Shown here: one piece after another, positions 25,511 through 64,000 of the stretch
Numbering within the stretch: position 1 is the stretch's first letter
How the letters are laid out: every line of letters starts with the position of its first letter
Position numbers and translations under genes: made by a program
The notes under the pieces: model-generated
The model's database searches: none
Seen by the model: only the letters and a program-made list of their open reading frames with translations
What the model was told of the DNA's origin: nothing
Source of the DNA: an uncultured virus (IMG/VR IMGVR_UViG_3300047312_000104)
Lineage: Duplodnaviria; Heunggongvirae; Uroviricota; Caudoviricetes
Virus record (IMG/VR): IMGVR_UViG_3300047312_000104
Strand: one strand, 5' to 3'
Length of the DNA: 64,000 bases

Positions 25511-27397
25511 TTAGTCGGGATCCTGTGAACCATATGTTCCAGTGGTCCCCAGGCCCTTCCCGAACCCCTTCCCGCGGGCGAGCGCTGGGACGAAGCTGGT
25601 ACTGTTGGGATCACTGGTGGCACCCCTGGAGAGCGAATGCTGGAATGCCGAGCTCGAATAGAAGCCGGCCAAGGGTACTTGCCAGTCAGGATCCTGGTGG
25701 GTGGCCAGCAGCCCACGCTGGTGTACTGGCTCGAACCCGGGAGGTTCGGCGTGCGAGTACACATCAGCGATTCCGTGCTTATCGAGATGCTTTGCCACTT
25801 TCTTGGTTATCTTCGTCCCGACCCCGTAGTGGAGCCCTGGCTCTTCCATATACCGCCCAATCGAGTGTCTGACCGGCTGGAGGGTAGCGTCCTCGCGAGG
25901 CTTATACCCGTGGGTCAGCTGTCCATACCCAACGATATCGTCAGGAACGTGCTCCCCGATCCCGTTCGGGTCCTTCACCTGGGTCCAATTGAGGAGTCCT
26001 GCCACCACCGCTTCGAGGTTACGCCGGTGATGCGCTATTCCTGAGTTGTTTAGAGCTTCCCCGAGGAGTCCAAGGTAGACACGTCGCGCTTCCCCGATCC
26101 CGCGATGTTGAACGAGATCAGACGGGTGCGGGATCCCGTTGGTGAGGTCATCCCCTTGGTCAACTTGGTCACCAGGCTTCACGATGGGATCTAACCCGGC
26201 GTGAACGTAGTGCTTCTTTGACCCGATCGTGATATGGTGACCACCCTGGGGGGCTCTCTCGACACTCTTCACAACCCCCTGTTCGTCTGCGAGCGGTCCA
26301 GCCTCGGGGAAACTCTCTGGGGCTTCGATCAGCCGATTGATGTAATCGAATCCACTCCGGTCCGGCCCTTTGGCCTTAGCCATCAGGCTGTTGTGTTTCG
26401 ACGACAGCGATCCCTGGGAGAGCTTTTCACTAAGGGCCTGAGCGGCCGGGATCCCGATATTGTCGCCAATTCTCGAAAGATCGAAGCGATCTCTTCGGCC
26501 AGCCGCGAGTCTTGAAATCCCGCCGTCAGGAGTGGGCTCTGTGAGGGGCGAATGGATGACGATCTCATCGGTACCTTTCTCCCTAATTTGGCGCAGCATA
26601 TCCGGAGTGATGGTCTGGCCCGCTTTGAACGGGCCGGCGTCGGCTGCCAGCACCGCCCCGACATTGTCCTGATCCTTAGGGTCCACAGGGAGCCCCACGG
26701 GGAGCCGCGTAGGGTCCGGGGTATCCTTCGTGACAACAATCCGATGAGTGGCGTTGGCGAGCTTTTTCCCCATGAAACCAGCTTCACCGGTACTCAACTT
26801 CGTGTTGATGTCACCCTTGCGCTGTCCATATAACCCGGCCCAATACTCAACAGGATCCATCCCTTCGGCATAGCTATGGAAGAGTGGTACCGGCAGGACC
26901 TTACCGGTGTGGTCGGCTGTCAGGAGATCAGCACCCCGGAGAGAATTGTAATCGGACTTCTTACCGCGCGACCCGCTGATCAGCTGAAGGTAATAGGGGT
27001 TATTTTCCTTCTTGGCTTCCTCATACATCGCGTCTTGTAGTTTCGGACCAAGCGGCAATAGAGTATCGATGATCTGCTGATCCTTCTGATCCTGCGGGAT
27101 CTTGTCGTCCTCTATGATTTGTTGAACTCTCTTCCGCGCCTCACCAATCACTTGTTCCTTGGCTGGTGATTTAGCGAGCGCCGAAAGAGATACGGATGAA
27201 CCGGACGAATAGGCGGTTGAGCGCCCGATGTCGTTTAGCTTCTGGAGCGTTTCTTTGTATTGGTCCGGATGCTTCTCAGCCAACTGCTGGAGCAGACTGT
27301 GCATCCCCTGCTTATCGAAACGAAACCCCTCGTCGCGCCGGAGATCTTCCGGGAGAGCTTGGTTGATCAGCATGGTCCCGACGGTCGTGGTCCCCAC
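25511..27397 (-). CDS. rpoC: DNA-directed RNA polymerase beta' C-terminal part
   Basis: TTVG, SGSRG, SYAEG...YWAGLYGQRKGDINTKLSTGEAGFMGKKL (bridge helix), IGIPAAQALSEKLSQGSLSSKH (trigger loop), IAHHRRNLE, matching RpoC regions. Confidence 0.9.
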   Translation of the reverse strand: MGTTTVGTMLINQALPEDLRRDEGFRFDKQGMHSLLQQLAEKHPDQYKETLQKLNDIGRSTAYSSGSSVSLSALAKSPAKEQVIGEARKRVQQIIEDDKIPQDQKDQQIIDTLLPLGPKLQDAMYEEAKKENNPYYLQLISGSRGKKSDYNSLRGADLLTADHTGKVLPVPLFHSYAEGMDPVEYWAGLYGQRKGDINTKLSTGEAGFMGKKLANATHRIVVTKDTPDPTRLPVGLPVDPKDQDNVGAVLAADAGPFKAGQTITPDMLRQIREKGTDEIVIHSPLTEPTPDGGISRLAAGRRDRFDLSRIGDNIGIPAAQALSEKLSQGSLSSKHNSLMAKAKGPDRSGFDYINRLIEAPESFPEAGPLADEQGVVKSVERAPQGGHHITIGSKKHYVHAGLDPIVKPGDQVDQGDDLTNGIPHPSDLVQHRGIGEARRVYLGLLGEALNNSGIAHHRRNLEAVVAGLLNWTQVKDPNGIGEHVPDDIVGYGQLTHGYKPREDATLQPVRHSIGRYMEEPGLHYGVGTKITKKVAKHLDKHGIADVYSHAEPPGFEPVHQRGLLATHQDPDWQVPLAGFYSSSAFQHSLSRGATSDPNSTSFVPALARGKGFGKGLGTTGTYGSQDPD

Positions 27398-27400
27398 AGA

Positions 27401-27622
27401 TCACCTATGGTCCGCTATTTCGACCTTTTGAGCCGTAAGCCCGAGATGCAAATCTTGAACGACTTGTCCAAAATCATCGTGGGTAGCATCACTGTGGACC
27501 ACTATCCCGCCGTCCTGGTAAGTAACGGCCAACGGTACCCCGAGGTCATCACAGACCACCACCTGGGTACAGGGGAGAGTAAGGACCTTGCCAGTCGTCT
27601 TGTGGACGAACCGGATAAGCAT
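27401..27622 (-). CDS. Small hypothetical protein between RNAP genes
   Basis: 73 aa, coupled start/stop with neighbours. Confidence 0.5.
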   Translation of the reverse strand: MLIRFVHKTTGKVLTLPCTQVVVCDDLGVPLAVTYQDGGIVVHSDATHDDFGQVVQDLHLGLTAQKVEIADHR

Positions 27623-28230
27623 CAGGTTCCCAACAGGTCAGCCGCGTCCGACCCCATCTTGATCGGGCCGCCGGCCTGGACGGCAGACATGTCGCCAGGC
27701 AAACCAGTAACGGGGCCTGGAGCCTGGGAAGGGTCAGGGGCGCCAGCCCCTGCTCCCCCGGGTGCGCCTGCGCCACCCTTGGGCTTCTTTGACTTACCGT
27801 AGCTGTCCAGGGCCTTGTCGACGATCGCCATCACGGTACTGGCCTGGCCAGGGTTGACGGCTTCGGGCGGGGTACCGTCGAGCGCGTTAGGGGCAGGGGG
27901 AGGCTGGGTCGGATCCATTGGTGCCCCAGGAGGAGCTCCAGGAGGGGCCCCCATGGCACTTGGGTCGGGTGGCATTCCGCCCTGGGACGGGTCGGCCCCA
28001 GGGGGCATCTGGGAAGGATCCCCAGGAGGGGCTCCGGCAGCCGAAGGATCAACCGGCGGGGCGCCTGCGGTAGGATCGCTAGGCGGTCCACCAGGGACCC
28101 CAGCGGCTCCAGGCGGCATACCTGGCGGGAGTCCTTGACCACCAGTCGGGTCAGCGGGCGGTTGAGCGTCCTGCCCCTGGGGCTCCGGTGGGACGAAGGC
28201 GCGCTTGAGCAAACGTTCGAAATAGGTCAT
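27622..28230 (-). CDS. Pro/Gly-rich low-complexity protein
   Basis: LLKRAF N-terminus then PPxDP/GAPPG repeats. Confidence 0.55.
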   Translation of the reverse strand: MTYFERLLKRAFVPPEPQGQDAQPPADPTGGQGLPPGMPPGAAGVPGGPPSDPTAGAPPVDPSAAGAPPGDPSQMPPGADPSQGGMPPDPSAMGAPPGAPPGAPMDPTQPPPAPNALDGTPPEAVNPGQASTVMAIVDKALDSYGKSKKPKGGAGAPGGAGAGAPDPSQAPGPVTGLPGDMSAVQAGGPIKMGSDAADLLGT

Positions 28231-28265
28231 AAGGGTACCCTAACTTGGCCGGTAAAGCCAACAAC

Positions 28266-31200
28266 TCACTTGTCGGAGATGATTTGGACGGGATCGGACA
28301 CGCCAATTTCACCGCGGGTGTAGGCTGCCATGGCATCGCTAGCCGTAGCAAACACTCGGGTTGGCTTCTTGTGGTCCTTCTGGGATGCCGTGTACAAGCC
28401 GCCCAGGAACTCATTCGAAGGGGCGAGATGCACATCGAACGAATTAGCCGCCAGCAGATTCTTAGACGGGAACAGCTTGGCTTTTACCTCGTTCACGGCT
28501 TCCTTTGAAACCGGAACGTGTACCCCGATGGCGTCTCCATCGAAGTCAGCCCCGAGCCCCTTGGTAACGGCCTGTGATATCGAGATATCGGATTGCCCAC
28601 GGTTGATGTGGGCAATTCCACCCACGTAGTTGTATCGGTGGAGTTCCGGGGCTCGGTTGTACACAACCGGACGCTCGGACATCTCCGTCTCAAGAGCATG
28701 TTCGGCTTGCTTCGACTTATTCTTAACAGCCTTAACGGCATCAGCCGCGTGCATCCCACTACGGACAAGGCGAGCTATCACGAAAGGTCTGAACTGTTTC
28801 CACGCCATCTCTTCCGGGATCCCGATCGAATCCATATCCATGGCCGGGTCAACGGTGATCACAGAGCGGCCGATGGTGTCGACGGTGTTGCCGAGAACCT
28901 TGCGCTGGAAACGGCTGAACTTAGGCGAGTCCTTCACCCCAATGGCAAACCTAAGCATGCCACGAATTCCCTGTTCAGCGTGCTTGGGATCTACTGGGTC
29001 AGCCACGCCAGCCACTGCCTTGGCTGAGTTGTAGAGATTCAGGTACGCGTCCCCCGCGTTACCGAATTCCTTCTGATGTTCAGACCAGTTTTTAGAAGCT
29101 TCAAGGACATCGTGGTACAGGTAATTCGCATCATGGACCATGTCGACCCCACGGGCGCGCAGGACTGGTCTATACTTGGGAGGCAACAGAGGAAGTTTAG
29201 AAATCATCAACTCGTCTGGTTTAAGACCCTGGGTCTGGAGTCCGGTCAAATACCCAAGCTTCTTTATCGCAATATCGCGCCCAGCCCCGCTTAACCCCTT
29301 CACTTCCTGCTTGGTCTGCTCAATTGCCTTCCCGACGTCTATCCCTTTGAGGGCATGCTCGATCGCTTCAGGGCCAGTCTTGTCGCCAATCTTCTCTTGG
29401 CCAGCCAAGATAGATTCAAACTTCTTATTCGTAAGACCAAGTATCCGCACGATAGGGTCTTGCGCCAACGGGTTAGGGATCTTCACCGGAAGCTTTATTT
29501 TGCTCCAACGGGTTCCGTCTGCCCCGCCCGTCTTTCCAAGATCGAACAATCCATCCGGGACAGGCTTCATCGAATTGAAGTCAAACGTACCAGAATTGCC
29601 AATCTCGTGCTGGGCCATGGCGTCCACGTCACGATCGGTCATGAACGACAACTGGGTCTTGCCCTGCCCCTTATTTCGTATGTTTACTCCGGCTGCTCTG
29701 AGGAGATTCAAGAAATGCTTATTGGCGAAAGACTCATTTGGCGCCACCGGAGTCCCGCCGGTCTTGAGCGACCGCCAGTAATCGTCATTCCGCTGACCCC
29801 GGACCATCTTTGCGTCCTTGAGGAACTCGGTGGCTCCGCTGGAAAGCAACGATGTCAAACCAAGCATCCCAATCCGCTTCGATCCCTCTTTGCCACCCCT
29901 GGCCGGAGACTCGTCGACCGAATAGCCTCCGGTATCGCGGGCGCTCAACTTACCTTCTGCGGTATGGTGCAGCTTGGCCAGGTACTGGTGACCCGTAAAG
30001 ACTCCCGGGATCTTGCGCCCGTCCCTAGGATCCGTGAGGGTCTCGGTTTCCTTAACCCCGTGCTTACGAGCTTCAGCTAAAGCAAAGTCGGCTAACCCGC
30101 CCTTGTCTTCGAATGATTTCATCAAATACGGCTTGCCTGTTTTGGCCGCCACTTTGCCGAGCAGAGTCGAGGCCAATAGTCCCGGGTTAGACCGGGTGAT
30201 GACACCTGTGGGCCCTAACAGGACCTCAAGTGGCTTCCCTTCCTCGTCATGCGGCATCTGATCGTCCGGGACAATCGAGCTCACTACGCCCTTGTTCCCG
30301 TACGCTGAGGACATCTTGCTTCCGACCGTCATGGGCTCATAAGATTTAACCGCTACCTTGATGCCGGACCTGGTCCTGGCCACATCAGTCACGACCCCTG
30401 GCTGGGGGTGCTCCCAGACTTGGGTGGCGTCTGTGTGGGCTGACTTGTCCGACTTCATTAGAGCGCCAACGGCACGACCCTGCCGCTTCCCTATCGCGAC
30501 AATCAGTGGGTCCCCTGGGTTGATGGTCTGTCCAACCCTTACTACCCCATCGTCATCGAGCTTCTTAAATTGCTCAGGGGTATACTTATCCCCATAGATG
30601 GCCCTGTAGTCGGCCGTCTTTGTCGAGTGAATTTCCGGCCCTAATTCGAGCTTCTGTTTGTACTGATGCTCTGACGTCAACCGGTTAGCCGCGGATGAGC
30701 TGATGACAATCGCGTCCTCATAGGTGGCCCCGTGTCCACTCAAGTACCCAACCCGCATGTTGAGACCCGGGGCTGCCCGGCCGTGCTCGTCAGTAAAGTT
30801 AGACCTGGCCAACAATTGCCCAGGCTGGACCGGATCACCGATCTTAACCGCCGGAGTATTGTGGAGTGTGGTCTTACGAGCCAACGGGAAATTGTTGTAG
30901 AGCTGGTACTCTTTTTTCTCTCCGCCAGGATGCAAGACCGTGATGGAGTCAGGCGATACCCCGATCACTTGACCGGGCTTATCGGCATGGACTGCCCCGG
31001 CATGCTTCCCCATCTCATTGTAGAACGACTTACCTTCGCGGTCGACCGACTGGACCAGCGGGGCCTCGGGATTCTTGAGCGGCATCGACTGGGTGATCAT
31101 CCGACTACCCATGGCCAGCCGCTTGCTCTTCATCCCCTCTGGCATCGGAATCATGTTCGAGACGCGGGAGAACATGTGGGTCGAATCGGGGAGTTCGTAG

Positions 31201-32681
31201 TCAACTAGTCCGCGGTTCACATACCTGATCTGGTCCCCCACCATCGCCCGAATCTTCTTCTTCGTCTTGTCGGCCATCTCACCGGGGAACGCCACCACCT
31301 TGCCAGCAATCTGATGACCACTCATCGGCGCGTGTTGGCCGGTCCGGGTATTCCGGAGAGTGGTGTACAGCTGGTTGTCTGACCCTTTAAGGGCCGCGTC
31401 CGTGACCCTCATGTCTAACCCGATGGCCGCGCTTTCAGGCGATCTTGACGGGTCAATCAAACCGAAGTGACTCGGCTGCACCCCACGGGCCTCCTTGGAG
31501 ACCGATTGGGCCGAGCTTATTCCGCCTTCACCCATTCTCGTGATACCCTGACGAAGATCGTGGGTTTCATAAGGGTTTACTTCTTCAGATGCATGAGCTA
31601 GTCCAGAACCGCGGAATATCGCGTGAATATTGGGGGTTAGGAGGCCCGACTGGAGTGACCCTAGGTTGCCCTCTCGTGTGGCTTTCCAGAGAAGCTTCTG
31701 AGCAGCTCCTGTTTGGTCACGCTTGAGGCGTTCACGAAAATGGTCTTCAGCCGAATGGAGTGACTGGAACGCTTGGGCGTCACGGTTATCCCCTGGCTCT
31801 TCGTCTTTCGCCACCCTGAGGAGCTTCTGGGTCACTCTGGTCAGCACATCCGGGGATAGGGTCTCGTGACGCTTGCCGAGTGTCAGCTCAGTGGTGTCTG
31901 GATCAACCTTGGTCCGAGCCAGGATTCCCTGGAGGGTTTGCGGTAGATGCTCATCAGGGGCTTCGCGTTCGTGTTTACGCCCCAACTTCTCCACCACCTT
32001 TTTTAGGTCCTGGTTGTCATGACCGGTTACACCGCGCCAATTCGCCTTGAAGAGTTCATCCCCCCAGGCCTGCTTCAGCGCGTCATCCCCAACCCCGAGG
32101 GCTTTGAGGAGCGGGTATAGGCGGGTGGTCGATTGACCGATCTGAACCTTAAACAAACCACTCTCTGGTTCGAGGTTTACCCTGAATCCGCGGCCTGATC
32201 CCGGCTGGGCATTGACGTGGGCCTCGACCCCGCCATTTTGTTGTTTTCTGACGTACACGCCCGGACGCAGCCGAGCCTGGTTACGGACTACCCAAGAAGT
32301 CCCATTATGGATGAATACCCCGCGGGACGTCAGGTGAGGAACGTGGGCTAGGGTTGTGTGGCGTTCATCCAACACTTGATTGGTCGCATTATCGACCAGT
32401 CGGACCTTGCCCTGGATCGGACGCTGGAGCCGTCCTCCATTGAGGATCGCCTCTTTCTCATCCTTCTTGGTCGGCTCTTTATGATTCGGCGCGTATTGGA
32501 CGTCCGAGACTTCTAGCCGGTGGGTAGCGTTCTTGAGTGGAAAACGCTCCTGGACGCCCTTGAGGGCGTGGTCATAGATATCTTTACGGTGTTGATCGAT
32601 GTCGTCGAAACGACGAAACGTTACCGCTGGTTTTGGTGCAGGGACATCCGGTCCCTGCATGTCATCGAGCAGATCCGCCAT
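28266..32681 (-). CDS. rpoB: RNA polymerase beta subunit fused to beta' N-terminal/catalytic half
   Basis: RpoB motifs (ARGVQPSHFGLIDPSRSPE, GATYEDAIVIS, GSKMSSAYGNKGVVS, KLHHTAEGKLSAR) followed in-frame by RpoC motifs (LPLLPPKYRP, RFQRKVLG..VD..GRSVI, NRAPELHR, GADFDGD). Confidence 0.93.
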   Translation of the reverse strand: MADLLDDMQGPDVPAPKPAVTFRRFDDIDQHRKDIYDHALKGVQERFPLKNATHRLEVSDVQYAPNHKEPTKKDEKEAILNGGRLQRPIQGKVRLVDNATNQVLDERHTTLAHVPHLTSRGVFIHNGTSWVVRNQARLRPGVYVRKQQNGGVEAHVNAQPGSGRGFRVNLEPESGLFKVQIGQSTTRLYPLLKALGVGDDALKQAWGDELFKANWRGVTGHDNQDLKKVVEKLGRKHEREAPDEHLPQTLQGILARTKVDPDTTELTLGKRHETLSPDVLTRVTQKLLRVAKDEEPGDNRDAQAFQSLHSAEDHFRERLKRDQTGAAQKLLWKATREGNLGSLQSGLLTPNIHAIFRGSGLAHASEEVNPYETHDLRQGITRMGEGGISSAQSVSKEARGVQPSHFGLIDPSRSPESAAIGLDMRVTDAALKGSDNQLYTTLRNTRTGQHAPMSGHQIAGKVVAFPGEMADKTKKKIRAMVGDQIRYVNRGLVDYELPDSTHMFSRVSNMIPMPEGMKSKRLAMGSRMITQSMPLKNPEAPLVQSVDREGKSFYNEMGKHAGAVHADKPGQVIGVSPDSITVLHPGGEKKEYQLYNNFPLARKTTLHNTPAVKIGDPVQPGQLLARSNFTDEHGRAAPGLNMRVGYLSGHGATYEDAIVISSSAANRLTSEHQYKQKLELGPEIHSTKTADYRAIYGDKYTPEQFKKLDDDGVVRVGQTINPGDPLIVAIGKRQGRAVGALMKSDKSAHTDATQVWEHPQPGVVTDVARTRSGIKVAVKSYEPMTVGSKMSSAYGNKGVVSSIVPDDQMPHDEEGKPLEVLLGPTGVITRSNPGLLASTLLGKVAAKTGKPYLMKSFEDKGGLADFALAEARKHGVKETETLTDPRDGRKIPGVFTGHQYLAKLHHTAEGKLSARDTGGYSVDESPARGGKEGSKRIGMLGLTSLLSSGATEFLKDAKMVRGQRNDDYWRSLKTGGTPVAPNESFANKHFLNLLRAAGVNIRNKGQGKTQLSFMTDRDVDAMAQHEIGNSGTFDFNSMKPVPDGLFDLGKTGGADGTRWSKIKLPVKIPNPLAQDPIVRILGLTNKKFESILAGQEKIGDKTGPEAIEHALKGIDVGKAIEQTKQEVKGLSGAGRDIAIKKLGYLTGLQTQGLKPDELMISKLPLLPPKYRPVLRARGVDMVHDANYLYHDVLEASKNWSEHQKEFGNAGDAYLNLYNSAKAVAGVADPVDPKHAEQGIRGMLRFAIGVKDSPKFSRFQRKVLGNTVDTIGRSVITVDPAMDMDSIGIPEEMAWKQFRPFVIARLVRSGMHAADAVKAVKNKSKQAEHALETEMSERPVVYNRAPELHRYNYVGGIAHINRGQSDISISQAVTKGLGADFDGDAIGVHVPVSKEAVNEVKAKLFPSKNLLAANSFDVHLAPSNEFLGGLYTASQKDHKKPTRVFATASDAMAAYTRGEIGVSDPVQIISDK

Positions 32682-56164: not shown

Positions 56165-56240
56165 TGGTCCTACCCCTGGGAATTGAACCCAGATTGCTCG
56201 CTCTTCAGACGAGTGCCTTGACCACGTCGGCCAGAGTAGG
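56165..56240 (-). tRNA. tRNA-Phe(GAA)
   Basis: Cloverleaf; anticodon arm CTCGT-CTGAAGA-GCGAG; TTCAATT T-loop; encoded CCA. Confidence 0.92.
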
Positions 56241-56453: not shown

Positions 56454-56546
56454 TGGTGGGAACCGGTGGAGTCGGACCACATGCCTCGTAGAGGATCGGA
56501 GCTACAATCCGATGGCAGGCCAACCCCGCCCTTATTTGCGTTTCCC
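56454..56546 (-). tRNA. tRNA-Tyr(GTA), atypical 8/4 fold
   Basis: TCGGA-TTGTAGC-TCCGA anticodon arm, variable arm, A73, CCA. Confidence 0.75.
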
Positions 56547-56550
56547 ATGA

Positions 56551-56636
56551 TGGCGGAAGCCGGTGATCCTGCCTCACAGACCCGAAGGTCCCAACCGCTT
56601 AGCAAGCGGCGTCGAGCCTTGCTCGATTCGACTTCC
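56551..56636 (-). tRNA. tRNA-Ser(GCT), 8/4 fold
   Basis: GCCGC-TTGCTAA-GCGGT anticodon arm, long variable arm, G73, CCA. Confidence 0.82.
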
Positions 56637-56730: not shown

Positions 56731-56739
56731 ATAGGTTAT

Positions 56740-56772
56740 AAAAGAACAAACCCCCGGGTTTTCCCGGGGGTT
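56740..56772 (-). terminator. Intrinsic terminator (attenuator) in front of Ser/Ser/Tyr/Phe tRNAs
   Basis: AACCCCCGGG-AAAA-CCCGGGGGTT then TGTTCTTTT, ~10 nt before tRNA-Ser. Confidence 0.85.
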
Positions 56773-56800
56773 CTTGAGTCGCAGTCTCGTGGAGACGTTG

Positions 56801-56869
56801 TTACTCTCGACCTCCGGCATATGCCGAGGAACTTGAATAACTAAACGAAAAGGACGACTGGGCGATCAT
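56801..56869 (-). CDS. Ser/Phe/Tyr-rich leader peptide MIAQSSFSFSYSSSSAYAGGRE
   Basis: 22-codon ORF with 8 Ser, 2 Phe, 2 Tyr codons just upstream of the terminator. Confidence 0.8.
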   Translation of the reverse strand: MIAQSSFSFSYSSSSAYAGGRE

Positions 56870-56899
56870 GTGATTAATTATTGGGATCGGGATAGAAAC

Positions 56900-57205
56900 T
56901 CAAGTGTCTTCTTCCGGCATGTCCCGTTCTAGGTCGAACGACGGATCGTACACGATGTCCTCTACGATGTCGCACAGGTCCTTAGGGTCCCACCCGGCAT
57001 CCTCGCAATGGGTCCACACGCACTCAACCATGTTGGCCGCTGCCCACAAAGCCGACTCGATCTGACCGCTGTGGTGGAGAGCCATCCGAAGTTTGTTCAG
57101 ACCAGTATCTTCATCTTGGGTCACAATCCCAATCACGACCGCGATCCCGCGCTTCTTCAGCGCTTGGATCAACTCACCATCGGTCGCCATATCGATTGGG
57201 GTCAC
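56900..57205 (-). CDS. Hypothetical acidic protein
   Basis: 101 aa ORF. Confidence 0.5.
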   Translation of the reverse strand: MTPIDMATDGELIQALKKRGIAVVIGIVTQDEDTGLNKLRMALHHSGQIESALWAAANMVECVWTHCEDAGWDPKDLCDIVEDIVYDPSFDLERDMPEEDT

Positions 57206-61662: not shown

Positions 61663-62104
61663 CGGGGGTCTCCTTTACGGCCAGATCGGCAATGAGGAGT
61701 TCCTTGGGGAACACGACCGTCATCTCGGGCTGGGCCTCCAGGACCTTCTCGGACGATTCCCCGACCGCCTCGACCTCGCGGTCCTGGAGATCCTGGTCGT
61801 ATGAGTTGACCCGTTCCTTCTTCCCAAACGATTCAGGGTCGTACGGGGCTCTCTGGCTGGAGAGCTTGGCTCGCGACTCGTCCGTCAAAGGGTTACCTTG
61901 ATCGTCCAAGGGGACCCCCGGGGAGACCAGGCGGTCTCGGTCCGCCACGTACATACCACGGAGCAATATATTGTGCCGGTAGGCGTCTATGCCCCTTAGG
62001 AGCTTCGACTGTTGGATCATCCGGATGTGCTGGATTGGGTCAAACCCGAGAGGATCCTTAGACATCCCGGGGGTCTTTGTGGTTGGCGGCGTAGCGGATG
62101 ACAT
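61640..62104 (-). CDS. Hypothetical protein
   Basis: 154 aa ORF (start may be MSKD at 62065). Confidence 0.45.
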   Translation of the reverse strand: MSSATPPTTKTPGMSKDPLGFDPIQHIRMIQQSKLLRGIDAYRHNILLRGMYVADRDRLVSPGVPLDDQGNPLTDESRAKLSSQRAPYDPESFGKKERVNSYDQDLQDREVEAVGESSEKVLEAQPEMTVVFPKELLIADLAVKETPDATPPIV

Positions 62105-62666
62105 CTTTCTCTGATGTCAGGATATGTGATACATCGACTTGACCGTTTGGAGCCTGGGCCGGAGTCGTGATGGACTCGTCGTTACGTACCATGGTTATAT
62201 CACCATTCGCCCCAACCCGAAGCTTCTGGACCGGTATCGTGACGCCTACGCTCGCGTTAATCGAGTCGGCCAACGGGACAGGATACATGATGCAAGGCGA
62301 CACGTTACGGTCGTGCAGGTTAACGGTGTCGCCCGGGTAACCGATGATCTCGGTAGGGATTCGACGGGCTTTGGACTTGGATCCAGAATCGTTGAAGTGA
62401 CTCGGGGTTCCGCCGGTTTCTAGGGCCTTGGCCCGCATAACCTTGTGGTAGTCATAGCCTGGACGCCAGGCCGAGAAGGCCTCTTGGAACTCTCTCTTGG
62501 CATCGAAAGCTTTCTGAGCGTCGTCGACCGCCGTTTTAGCTTTAGCCGCGGCCTTCTCGTCTGCCGCCTGTTTTAAGTAAATGACGATAATCGGCCAGCC
62601 GAGGATCGCGGCCGAGAAGACTATGGTGGGGACGACGACCCACATGAACCAAGAGAGGGTAAACAT
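62058..62666 (-). CDS. Membrane-anchored hypothetical protein
   Basis: N-terminal transmembrane helix. Confidence 0.5.
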   Translation of the reverse strand: MFTLSWFMWVVVPTIVFSAAILGWPIIVIYLKQAADEKAAAKAKTAVDDAQKAFDAKREFQEAFSAWRPGYDYHKVMRAKALETGGTPSHFNDSGSKSKARRIPTEIIGYPGDTVNLHDRNVSPCIMYPVPLADSINASVGVTIPVQKLRVGANGDITMVRNDESITTPAQAPNGQVDVSHILTSEKDVIRYAANHKDPRDV

Positions 62667-62667
62667 A

Positions 62668-62919
62668 TTAGGCCTTCACTGTGAGGAGTTCTTTGAAGAT
62701 ACGCTTGAGCCGGCCAGGCCCATCATACGGGCCATGGTACGAAACTGTCCAGGAGGCAACGTCGTCACGACCAGCAACGGTTGACCGGTACTGGGACCCA
62801 AGGGGAGTCGGGTGAGCGCGAAACAGGGCGCCGCAGATGTGGCGTGTAAGCCACCAGAGGACCTGACCGAGCAGGAGCCCTAGACCCAAGTTAAGGATAA
62901 AGGTTAGGTGGAAGTCCAA
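62668..62919 (-). CDS. Small membrane-anchored protein
   Basis: N-terminal hydrophobic helix; TTG start. Confidence 0.4.
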   Translation of the reverse strand: MDFHLTFILNLGLGLLLGQVLWWLTRHICGALFRAHPTPLGSQYRSTVAGRDDVASWTVSYHGPYDGPGRLKRIFKELLTVKA

Positions 62920-62970
62920 GGGGTCCCCTTATGGGCTACAGGATAAGGGGATTAACTGTGAGTCAAGAGA

Positions 62971-63045
62971 TGGTTCACGAGCAGGGATTCAAACCCCGGT
63001 TCATCGCTTCAAAGGCGACAGTCTTATCAATTAGACGACTCGTGA
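62971..63045 (-). tRNA. tRNA-Gln(TTG)
   Basis: GTCGC-CTTTGAA-GCGAT; U1-A72; CCA. Confidence 0.9.
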
Positions 63046-63049
63046 GTGA

Positions 63050-63126
63050 TGGTTGCCCCAGGAGGTCTCGAACCTCCATCACCGGCTTCAGAGACCGGGG
63101 TTATTACCTGGTTAAACTACAGGGCA
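63050..63126 (-). tRNA. tRNA-Gln(CTG)
   Basis: CCGGT-CTCTGAA-GCCGG; U1-A72; CCA. Confidence 0.9.
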
Positions 63127-63131
63127 TCGAA

Positions 63132-63208
63132 TGGTGGGGGCGGTGGGATTTGCACCCACAGGGAAGATGCGTTTAAGGCATCCACGTCTGCTGTTCCGTC
63201 ACACCCCT
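63132..63208 (-). tRNA. tRNA-Leu(TAA), short variable loop
   Basis: GATGC-CTTAAAC-GCATC; A73; CCA. Confidence 0.85.
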
Positions 63209-63211
63209 AGA

Positions 63212-63287
63212 TGGTCCCCCTCCCCGGATTTGAACCGGGATCAGACTGTTTTTGAAACAGCCGCCTCTGCCGTTGGGCTAGAAGGGG
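63212..63287 (-). tRNA. tRNA-Leu(CAA), short variable loop
   Basis: GCTGT-TTCAAAA-ACAGT; A73; CCA. Confidence 0.88.
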
Positions 63288-63288
63288 A

Positions 63289-63364
63289 TGGTACCGATCC
63301 TGGGGGTTGCACCCAGACTTTGTAGTCTCTCAAACTACTGCCTCTGCTATTGGGCTAGACCGGT
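63289..63364 (-). tRNA. tRNA-Leu(GAG), short variable loop
   Basis: GTAGT-TTGAGAG-ACTAC; A73; CCA. Confidence 0.88.
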
Positions 63365-63367
63365 AAG

Positions 63368-63443
63368 TGGTACCGAGAGAGGGATTTGCACCCACACTGA
63401 ACTGGTTCTAAGCCAGCTGCCTCTGCTGTTGGGCTATCTCGGC
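63368..63443 (-). tRNA. tRNA-Leu(TAG), short variable loop
   Basis: GCTGG-CTTAGAA-CCAGT; A73; CCA. Confidence 0.88.
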
Positions 63444-63473
63444 GTGATTACTGTATTGATGTCAAAGATCTAT

Positions 63474-63508
63474 AAAACACAAAAACCCGACCTTTCGGCC
63501 GGGTTTTT
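63474..63508 (-). terminator. Intrinsic terminator (attenuator) in front of Leu x4/Gln x2 tRNAs
   Basis: AAAAACCCGGCC-GAAA-GGTCGGGTTTTT then GTGTTTT. Confidence 0.85.
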
Positions 63509-63549
63509 GGGTTCACCTTTACGGTGTTTTCGGTCTAGGCGACCATCCC

Positions 63550-63615
63550 TTAACCACGGCCATGAGGCTGAGGTAACTGTTGGAGCAACAGGAGGAGGGA
63601 CAGGGTGGTACGCAT
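63550..63615 (-). CDS. Leu/Gln-rich leader peptide MRTTLSLLLLLQQLPQPHGRG
   Basis: 21-codon ORF with 7 Leu (CTG, CTC, TTG, TTA) and 3 Gln (CAA, CAG) codons upstream of the terminator. Confidence 0.8.
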   Translation of the reverse strand: MRTTLSLLLLLQQLPQPHGRG

Positions 63616-63625
63616 GACGACTCTA

Positions 63626-63653
63626 AGGATAAACCATAGGGGATCTGATGCAA
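63626..63653 (-). promoter_or_regulatory. Candidate sigma70-like promoter for the Leu/Gln leader
   Basis: TTGCAT-N16-TATCCT ending 10 nt before the leader ATG. Confidence 0.4.
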
Positions 63654-63679
63654 GCCCCTATGTGGTAGATATCTCAAGA

Positions 63680-63758
63680 TGGTCCAAGTGGGAGGGCTGT
63701 TCACCTCCTAGCTCCGCGTTAAAAGCACGGCCCCTCGCCTCATTCGGGTTTCACTTGG
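63680..63758 (-). tRNA. tRNA-Lys(TTT), atypical T-loop
   Basis: Acceptor CCAAGTG/CACTTGG, CCGTG-CTTTTAA-CGCGG, T-stem GGAGG/CCTCC with 8-nt loop, CCA. Confidence 0.75.
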
Positions 63759-64000
63759 TTAAGTTTTTTCTTACGTCTTAGATCTCGTTGATATGCATTA
63801 TTAGCCTCGCGGCATACGTCGCAGCGGCAATAGTGTCGGTAACTGGATTTGGTGCCGTGTAGTCCTTTCGTAGGCGACTGCCCGAGATCAACGATGGTTT
63901 TAGCAGTATGACAAGTTTGACAGAGAATTTGACACTTAATGAGCTCAGCCTCAAACCTGGCCTTGGAAACGCTCCACTTATTGCCCAATCCAAAAAGTTT
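63740..64000 (-). CDS. HNH endonuclease, C-terminal part (start outside window)
   Basis: KCQILCQTCHTAKT followed by HG...Y..YCRCDVC Zn motif. Confidence 0.7.
   Translation of the reverse strand, partial: KLFGLGNKWSVSKARFEAELIKCQILCQTCHTAKTIVDLGQSPTKGLHGTKSSYRHYCRCDVCREANNAYQRDLRRKKKLNQVKPE

Follow-up and report, generated by a model that had tools for sequence, protein, structure and literature searches.

A candidate leader-peptide attenuator sampling the codons of a phage Leu/Gln tRNA array

Ribosome-mediated transcription attenuation is known from the leader peptides of enterobacterial amino-acid operons, such as trpL, hisL, leuL and pheL, and from the multivalent leaders of the thr and ilvGMEDA operons; in E. 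coli, an attenuator also stands before aminoacyl-transfer RNA (tRNA) synthetase genes (pheM-pheST). T-box riboswitches bind uncharged tRNA directly via a specifier codon and need no translation. In textbook cases, attenuation acts on genes of enzymes or synthetases rather than on those of tRNAs, and to our knowledge the setting of individual tRNA levels in bacteria and phages is poorly understood. Here we analyzed a stretch of 64,000 nucleotides (nt) from an uncultured virus of the Caudoviricetes (IMG/VR record IMGVR_UViG_3300047312_000104), referred to as the window, which carries on its minus strand a short leader open reading frame (ORF) rich in Leu and Gln codons, an intrinsic terminator hairpin, and an array of four tRNA-Leu and two tRNA-Gln genes. 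We consider it probable that positions 63615..63470, hereafter module A1, form a ribosome-mediated (leader-peptide) transcription attenuator gating this phage Leu/Gln tRNA array. What the sequences themselves show is the set of elements in the module, how these are ordered and spaced, which alternative folds are predicted, how the codons match, and that the arrangement recurs elsewhere.

Similar to the enterobacterial attenuators, A1 combines a short ORF carrying clustered regulatory codons with predicted, mutually exclusive antiterminator and terminator helices, the position of the ribosome being the presumed sensor, and, as in the thr and ilv leaders, several amino acids would be sensed together. 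In contrast to these systems, A1 lies in a phage and would regulate tRNA genes rather than biosynthetic enzymes, so that the sensed molecule would also be the product; moreover, synonymous codons occur side by side in its leader, each with its own isoacceptor encoded downstream. With the T-box riboswitch it shares transcription antitermination reporting the state of specific tRNAs, whereas the sensor here would be a translated ORF. No T-box match was obtained with Rfam at E ≤ 1 in 62000-64000, where non-tRNA matches lay far below the gathering scores, and the Rfam leader families (e.g. Leu, His, Thr, Trp) gave no match at E ≤ 1 in the scanned window regions.

Attenuators have also been predicted for leuS and trpS of Streptomyces, the former with a Leu-codon leader, an antiterminator and a terminator (PMC1262725). 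The synthetase attenuators (pheST, leuS, trpS) likewise apply classical attenuation to the translation apparatus; they act on one gene and one amino acid, whereas the modules described here precede tRNA arrays and have leaders that track the whole array content. The phrases 'tRNA gene(s)' and 'upstream of tRNA' were not found in the passages of PMC1262725, and neither 'tRNA gene', 'tRNA operon' nor 'upstream of tRNA' was found in those of a survey of premature terminators (PMC2965389). No Phe leader was found upstream of pheV in E. coli K-12, the pheV region being the one inspected, and we found no published description of leader-peptide attenuation of tRNA genes in the full-text literature, older subscription papers lying outside its reach. 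The mechanism proposed for A1 would be classical ribosome-mediated attenuation; the tRNA-gene target and the multi-codon sampling leader are the features for which we found no published account.

On the minus strand, the order of elements is an HNH endonuclease gene, a 124-nt spacer, the A1 ORF, 40 nt from its stop codon to the terminator hairpin, 36 nt from there to the first tRNA, and the six tRNA genes. The elements of the module are the following:

63550..63615, minus strand: A1 leader ORF of 21 codons plus TAA, MRTTLSLLLLLQQLPQPHGRG, unique in the window by its run of cognate codons
63574..63597, minus strand: A1 regulatory run, codons 7-14, CTC CTC CTG TTG CTC CAA CAG TTA
63566..63574, minus strand: putative A1 region 1, ACCUCAGCC, pairing locally with region 2 in the full-length minimum free energy (MFE) fold
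63552..63561, minus strand: A1 region 2, GGCCGUGGUU, predicted 5' strand of the antiterminator, overlapping the final three codons as well as the first stop-codon base
63480..63509, minus strand: A1 intrinsic terminator hairpin with a 13-base-pair (bp) stem and a GAAA loop (-20.9 kcal/mol alone)
63497-63509, minus strand: A1 region 3, the 5' arm of the terminator
63480-63492, minus strand: A1 region 4, the 3' arm of the terminator
63470..63479, minus strand: A1 U-rich tract, TGTTTTATAG, containing the motif TTTTATAG
62971..63443, minus strand: tRNA array Leu-TAG, Leu-GAG, Leu-CAA, Leu-TAA, Gln-CTG, Gln-TTG, called by ARAGORN and Rfam

The leader codons given in an initial annotation of this DNA are all found as written on the minus strand from 63615 to 63550 (ATG CGT ACC ACC CTG TCC CTC CTC CTG TTG CTC CAA CAG TTA CCT CAG CCT CAT GGC CGT GGT TAA), and the four Leu and two Gln tRNAs that it placed downstream are likewise recovered, ARAGORN finding all six and the Rfam tRNA model scoring each of them at 41-56 bits. 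The four tRNA-Leu genes are 76-77 nt long and lack a long variable arm (class-I-like), which is unusual for a bacterial-type tRNA-Leu. Leu and Gln account for 10 of the 20 A1 codons after the ATG, eight of them consecutive. With CTG (codon 5) and CAG (codon 16) added, the regulatory run corresponds to the reading range of all six downstream anticodons, in agreement with the codon assignment of the initial annotation, with the caveat that CTG is decoded by the UAG anticodon via U:G wobble only. Of the 1394 Leu codons counted in 39 long ORFs across the window, only 54 (3.9%) are TTA, in line with the rarity expected of it.

To what extent such an ORF could arise by chance was evaluated by listing the small ORFs (12-45 codons) found in the window in any of the six reading frames (n=345 with an ATG start, n=764 with any start), and A1 exceeds the chance level. 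A run of at least six cognate codons is confined to A1 (1/345 and 1/764, respectively), and all six codon classes are covered by 1/345 ATG-started and 3/764 any-start small ORFs. The latter figures have to be read with the reservation that a single stem within the A1 ORF, CTGTTG-CTC-CAACAG, supplies four of the six codon classes together, because the Leu codons CTG and TTG and the Gln codons CAG and CAA are reverse complements of each other.

The A1 hairpin is followed by UGUUUUAUAG. As the initial annotation had proposed, the 3' end of the leader (63552-63561) can pair with the terminator arm (63497-63505) with one bulge: GGCCGTGGTT (63561..63552) and AACCCGGCC (63505..63497) form a predicted antiterminator helix of 9 bp with one bulged U. 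In the MFE structure of the nascent RNA, folded between the ATG and the terminator loop, the 5' arm of the terminator has 10 of its 13 bases paired to positions -9..+3 around the stop codon, a level of arm pairing that was matched by 3.7% of 300 and 6% of 500 dinucleotide shuffles of the leader. With the ribosome footprint taken as -15 to +14 nt relative to the first A-site base, the predicted antiterminator was kept with the ribosome on codons 7-14 and was lost with the ribosome on the stop codon. These constrained folds agree with the earlier suggestion that a stalled ribosome would free, and a ribosome at the stop codon would mask, the antiterminator strand.

These features suggest a model in which a transcript coming from upstream would carry the 21-codon leader as a test ORF; transcription of A1 by read-through from same-strand upstream genes is possible. 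If tRNAs for CUC, CUG, UUG, UUA, CAA or CAG were scarce, the ribosome would stall within codons 5-16 and leave the last codons (GGCCGUGGUU) free to pair with the terminator 5' arm. The antiterminator thus formed would block the terminator, and polymerase would enter the six tRNA genes. With fast decoding, the ribosome would instead reach the stop codon and cover the same strand, the 13-bp terminator would form, and transcription would end before the tRNAs. As the array would be switched on by a shortage of its own tRNAs, the circuit would amount to a negative feedback on their supply. We infer in this model the translation of the leader, the source of its transcription, the coupling of polymerase and ribosome, and the physiological signal.

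A second module of similar architecture, A2 (56869..56736), lies on the same strand and would act likewise with Ser, Phe and Tyr codons:

56801..56869, minus strand: A2 leader ORF of 22 codons plus TAA, MIAQSSFSFSYSSSSAYAGGRE
56823-56829, minus strand: A2 region 1, CCUCGGC, inside the Ser run
56809-56817, minus strand: A2 region 2, CCGGAGGUC, at -14..-6 from the stop codon, with region 1 or the terminator 5' arm as predicted partner
56748..56773, minus strand: A2 intrinsic terminator hairpin of 11 bp, followed by GTTCTTTTATAA
56641..56730, minus strand: c1, a putative class II tRNA-Ser(TGA) of 90 nt ending in GCCA, with a cloverleaf MFE fold, called by ARAGORN at the 95% threshold only
56551..56636, minus strand: c2, an uncertain tRNA-like class II cloverleaf (MFE) of 86 nt with a GCT (Ser) anticodon loop, ending in GCCA
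56454..56546, minus strand: c3, a very uncertain CCA-ended element picked out by eye, with a hairpin loop TTGTAGC (GTA, Tyr) and no cloverleaf fold
56165..56240, minus strand: tRNA-Phe(GAA), about 210 nt past c3

Codons 5-15 of A2 (56825-56857) are all Ser, Phe or Tyr codons (TCG TCC TTT TCG TTT AGT TAT TCA AGT TCC TCG), a run of 11, where the other small ORFs of the window reach at most 4 (n=345) or 5 (n=764); the stop codon lies 27 nt ahead of the terminator. In the constrained folds without a ribosome, region 2 pairs with region 1, the terminator forms and no antiterminator is seen. A ribosome placed on codons 5-13 lets region 2 take up 8-9 bases of the terminator 5' arm, and one placed on the stop codon masks region 2. 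As judged from these predicted structures, A2 appears to follow the full 1:2 / 2:3 / 3:4 attenuator logic. With regard to its target genes, the Rfam tRNA model matches behind A2 the tRNA-Phe only, even at E ≤ 10, and c1-c3 therefore have to be regarded as putative; the D and T loops of c2 are atypical and non-canonical, and default ARAGORN misses all three. Directly upstream of the A2 leader (56870-56909, minus strand), TTGAGT, 17 nt, TAATTA, 5 nt and the ATG follow one another, an arrangement not listed by the promoter scan; if it is a promoter, it would leave the A2 leader mRNA almost without a 5' untranslated region. A promoter-like motif common to the A1 and A2 upstream regions was not supported.

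The two leaders lie before the two strongest terminators of the window. In 4001-64000 we counted 54 terminator-like sites, a total not above that of shuffled sequences. Only two of them, both on the coding strand, have at least 11 stem pairs, namely those at 63509 (13 pairs) and 56773 (11 pairs), and each of the two is preceded at 27-40 nt by the most extreme cognate small ORF of the window (Leu/Gln and Ser/Phe/Tyr, respectively). The motif TTTTATAR occurs twice in the 64 kilobases (kb), at 63470-63477 and 56736-56743 on the minus strand, each time directly after one of these terminators; it could belong to the U-tract or serve the tRNA genes as a promoter element. The A1 and A2 terminators have the common outline CAARAACCC..GAAA..GGGTTTGT.

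In order to find out whether such modules recur outside the window, independent arrays were collected by means of the D-arm motif AGCCCAAYRGCAGAGGC of the short tRNA-Leu genes, yielding 80 IMG/VR loci with flanks (of at least 121 matches), 79 metagenome loci, 17 genome loci and 8 further IMG/VR loci. Short Leu-anticodon tRNAs with this motif are widespread: they were seen in more than 121 IMG/VR contigs, in 79 metagenome contigs as tandem copies, in 17 contigs of bacterial genomes and in cultured phages, among them Bacillus phage Deep Blue. Terminators of at least 13 bp lie upstream of 4 of 303 unique arrays (this window, L197, L231 and L176), and in three of the four (this window, L197 and L231) a cognate-rich ORF ends 25-40 nt before the terminator. 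Together with a further locus, L185, the unrelated analogues are:

L197: promoter TTGACT-17-TATAAT, GAGGAG, ORF MRLCVPSLWSLPYLPEGGTT, 13-bp terminator and a Leu(x5)/Trp/Tyr/Pro(x4) array
L231: leader with 15 consecutive Leu/Ser residues (five Leu, all six Ser codons), 14-bp terminator and a Leu/Ser cluster
L185: leader MKTLLYYSSLSLSHQT, terminator and a Leu/Leu/Ser/Tyr array

In nascent folds, the terminator arm pairs with positions -8..+5 in L197 and -17..0 in L231 around the stop codon, overlapping the last codons, and no antiterminator is predicted in L185. Searches of the L197, L231 and L185 leaders against cultured phages returned tRNA matches only, and no curated Rfam leader family matched any of the nine analogous loci.

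Of 747 small ORFs located ahead of tRNA arrays, 26 have a terminator behind them and 721 do not, and cognate-rich ORFs (p<1e-3) number 3 in each group (Fisher p=7e-4; p=0.010 with this window excluded), in tests that were devised after the data were seen. A windowed enrichment score for array-cognate codons of at least 4 was reached in 3 of 288 upstream regions, those of this window, L224 and L199, as compared to none among the reverse complements and a mean of 0.25 with permuted array assignments. The codon-coverage statistic alone is mildly enriched (6 real cases against a permuted mean of 2.07, maximum 5), related loci being included in the count. L199 (MTSQQLLSLQQSLSSYSS) and L224 (MKKYSTLLLSSSLLGLRLSSLSL) have cognate-rich leaders before Leu/Ser/Gln arrays without a recognisable terminator, the L224 leader ending 5 nt before the first tRNA, and both hint at a variant with a different output.

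The D-arm motif also matches chromosomes of Actinoplanes, Cryptosporangium and others, and the short tRNA-Leu pair was present in 176 of the 301 genomes of a Micromonosporaceae search, a tally that takes in three unpublished genomes (G145, G113, G072), from which no conclusion is drawn here. Many of the fetched arrays are preceded by a conserved terminator, GCCGCCC...GGGCGG with a U-tract, and by a leader ORF whose stop codon lies 15-23 nt before the terminator (18-21 nt in 20 of 23). For instance, an array [Leu, Leu, Ala, Tyr, Cys] follows the leader MSGQKLLAAAAAARLDLDCLYQALLADRGGYLS, an array [Trp, Arg, Gln, Leu, Leu, Ala, Ser, Met, Lys] follows MMRNSAIAMWQRLALRKGSRQLRRWRDSAG, and an array [Leu-GAG, Leu-CAG] follows MTRFATNTTQLRLLGLLVLLEGRLDRGRRLR. 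In the 23 distinct leaders counted (L303 was left out), the mean cognate fraction is 0.456, compared to 0.349 (standard deviation 0.017) for permuted arrays; none of 5000 permutations reached 0.456, a result which, as the loci are related, should not be read as the probability of independent occurrences. Of the 17 amino acids open to comparison, 16 are commoner in the leader when the array has the corresponding tRNA. Leader composition follows array content in the Micromonosporaceae arrays.

With respect to structure, none of these leaders has a match to an Rfam family. In 23 of 23, the terminator arm is paired to the final codons when the nascent RNA is folded; since GC-rich shuffles often pair as well (median 0.36), only the constant position of the pairing is informative. 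The actinobacterial subfamilies pair in different registers, while the terminator core is invariant. In L272-L309 a small hairpin contains the leader stop codon (GCTGAC/GTCAGC or GCTAGC/GCTAGC), and Micromonosporaceae leaders often end in ...GRWRS or ...RGGY.S.

Several observations weigh against A1 being an attenuator. No sigma-70-type promoter was found upstream of A1 (63740-63616) and no Shine-Dalgarno sequence before its ATG; both leaders start with ATG and neither has a Shine-Dalgarno sequence, which is also missing from most of the 39 long ORFs of the phage. The upstream sequence GGAGCUAGGAGG (63723-63710) is predicted to pair with the leader pyrimidine tract and could hide the A1 ORF: in a fold of 297 nt (z = -2.35 for the whole stretch), the purine tract at 63710-63723 pairs with the Leu-codon part at 63580-63600, a pairing that may add a further layer of control or be incidental. 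The terminator arm adds only -1.4 kcal/mol to the A1 nascent fold (shuffle mean, -3.4), and full-length A1 RNA favours the terminator (-56.1) over a forced antiterminator (-43.7), so that any A1 switch must be kinetic, as is the choice of fold in classical attenuators. In addition, the phage encodes its own multisubunit RNA polymerase, which may bear on both hairpin termination and ribosome coupling, and behind A2 two of the three Ser/Tyr tRNA-like genes (c2 and c3) are called by no tRNA program.

The comparative data add further points of this kind. No homologue of the A1 leader was found in three related phage contigs (weak, short matches at chance level, best E 0.007 over 23 nt), in the phage collection (a single tRNA match for 62900-64000 by blastn against 50,697 phage records) or in 184 other fetched loci (tRNA matches only in the 80+79+25 sequences), and the exact 30-nt A1 terminator has 0 matches in IMG/VR. 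Locus searches at the protein level, with the HNH gene, the neighbouring 202-amino-acid protein and the deformylase as queries, gave nothing useful, no relatives of the 202-amino-acid protein being found. The closest relative found, G001 (66% RNA polymerase identity), has 20 tRNAs and no clear leader module before them, L176 has its 13-bp terminator without a matched ORF, and most of the arrays surveyed are without such a module.

Part of this evidence would also fit an ordinary unit boundary next to a chance ORF, the hairpin merely ending the HNH unit, a tRNA promoter lying in the following 36 nt (e.g. TTTTATAG/TTGACA), and the Leu/Gln richness being a by-product of the pyrimidine tract and of the CTGTTG/CAACAG hairpin. 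The missing promoter and Shine-Dalgarno sequence of the leader, the antiterminator energy gain below the shuffle mean, the four codon classes supplied by one hairpin, and the unremarkable total of terminator-like sites are all in line with this explanation, as is TTTTATAR, which occurs only after the two strong terminators of the window and could be a phage promoter. However, the coincidence would be needed twice in this one window, with different amino acids that match the downstream tRNAs each time, and would have to recur in unrelated contigs as well as in a family in which the leader tracks array content; moreover, the antiterminator strand recurs at the leader end or stop codon in A1, A2, L197 and L231. 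We therefore consider a mere unit boundary rather unlikely.

Alternatively, the leader could be a translated decoding sensor with another output, such as Rho access, RNase processing, stability of the tRNA precursor, or a pause or processing hairpin for the phage polymerase. The cognate-rich leaders of L224 and L199 without a clear terminator (in L224 with the ORF ending as close as 5 nt to the tRNA), the lack of a predicted antiterminator in L185, and the possession by the phage of its own RNA polymerase would be compatible with such an output. On the other hand, both leaders of the window are followed by canonical terminators with hairpin and U-tract, the predicted alternative helices use exactly the terminator 5' arm, and cognate-rich ORFs are significantly associated with terminators; we judge a different output to be unlikely. 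That the small ORFs encode functional (e.g. hydrophobic or secreted) micro-proteins, with terminators of their own and no relation to the tRNAs, or that a 61-codon frame at 63704..63519 is a real gene, is highly improbable. MRTTLSLLLLL does look like the beginning of a signal or membrane peptide, and only 10 nt separate the end of the 61-codon frame from the terminator. The A2 peptide SSFSFSYSSSS, however, has no membrane-like character, and the match of composition to the downstream tRNAs in independent modules would be left unexplained. The overlapping 61-codon frame was rejected as a gene, with one weak, repetitive match among 1.84 billion representatives.

Beyond the window, we lean, with less assurance than for A1 itself, towards a model in which codon-matched leader attenuators are a widespread, unpublished control of auxiliary tRNA arrays in phages of widely differing composition and in chromosomal arrays of Micromonosporaceae, measuring the usable tRNA pool. 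If this is true, an array would be switched on when that pool falls, e.g. when the host is shut off, when codon usage is mismatched or when anticodon nucleases attack, and the attenuator would be a built-in sensor within phage counter-defence. A codon-sampling leader would represent a direct feedback sensor of decoding capacity and would explain a need-dependent expression of large phage tRNA arrays. The rule that leader composition equals array content would be readable from sequence and would predict which tRNAs are co-regulated; it would further offer compact parts for synthetic circuits reporting the shortage of a chosen tRNA, and a testable link between phage tRNA arrays and tRNA-depleting host defences.

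The window belongs to a large soil phage of high novelty, and nearly all of its long ORFs lie on the minus strand. Identical low-depth pieces of the window are present in two DNA sequencing runs (soil, rhizosphere), and no RNA sequencing run was listed among the runs matching its sequence. Its genes include tail-fibre-like proteins, a dNMP kinase and the following:

25511-32681 block, minus strand: fusion of the RNA polymerase beta and beta' N-terminal domains, 1471 amino acids
25511-32681 block, next ORF, minus strand: separate beta' C-terminal ORF with beta' domain 5, 628 amino acids
59589-60104, minus strand: peptide deformylase (Pfam E 4.7e-37)
63740-64000, stop at 63740, minus strand: HNH endonuclease gene (phrog_4234, E 1.6e-19), directly upstream of the A1 leader

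Within the phage collection, the polymerase has its nearest relatives in Vibrio phage D69 and Salmonella phage Arash, at about 31% identity, and the best IMG/VR contig, G001, is 66% identical. The peptide deformylase, another gene of the translation apparatus, shares a gene block with the tRNA arrays. In L224, too, the Leu/Ser leader follows a similar HNH gene, whose C-terminus is related, and homing endonucleases may move leader modules.

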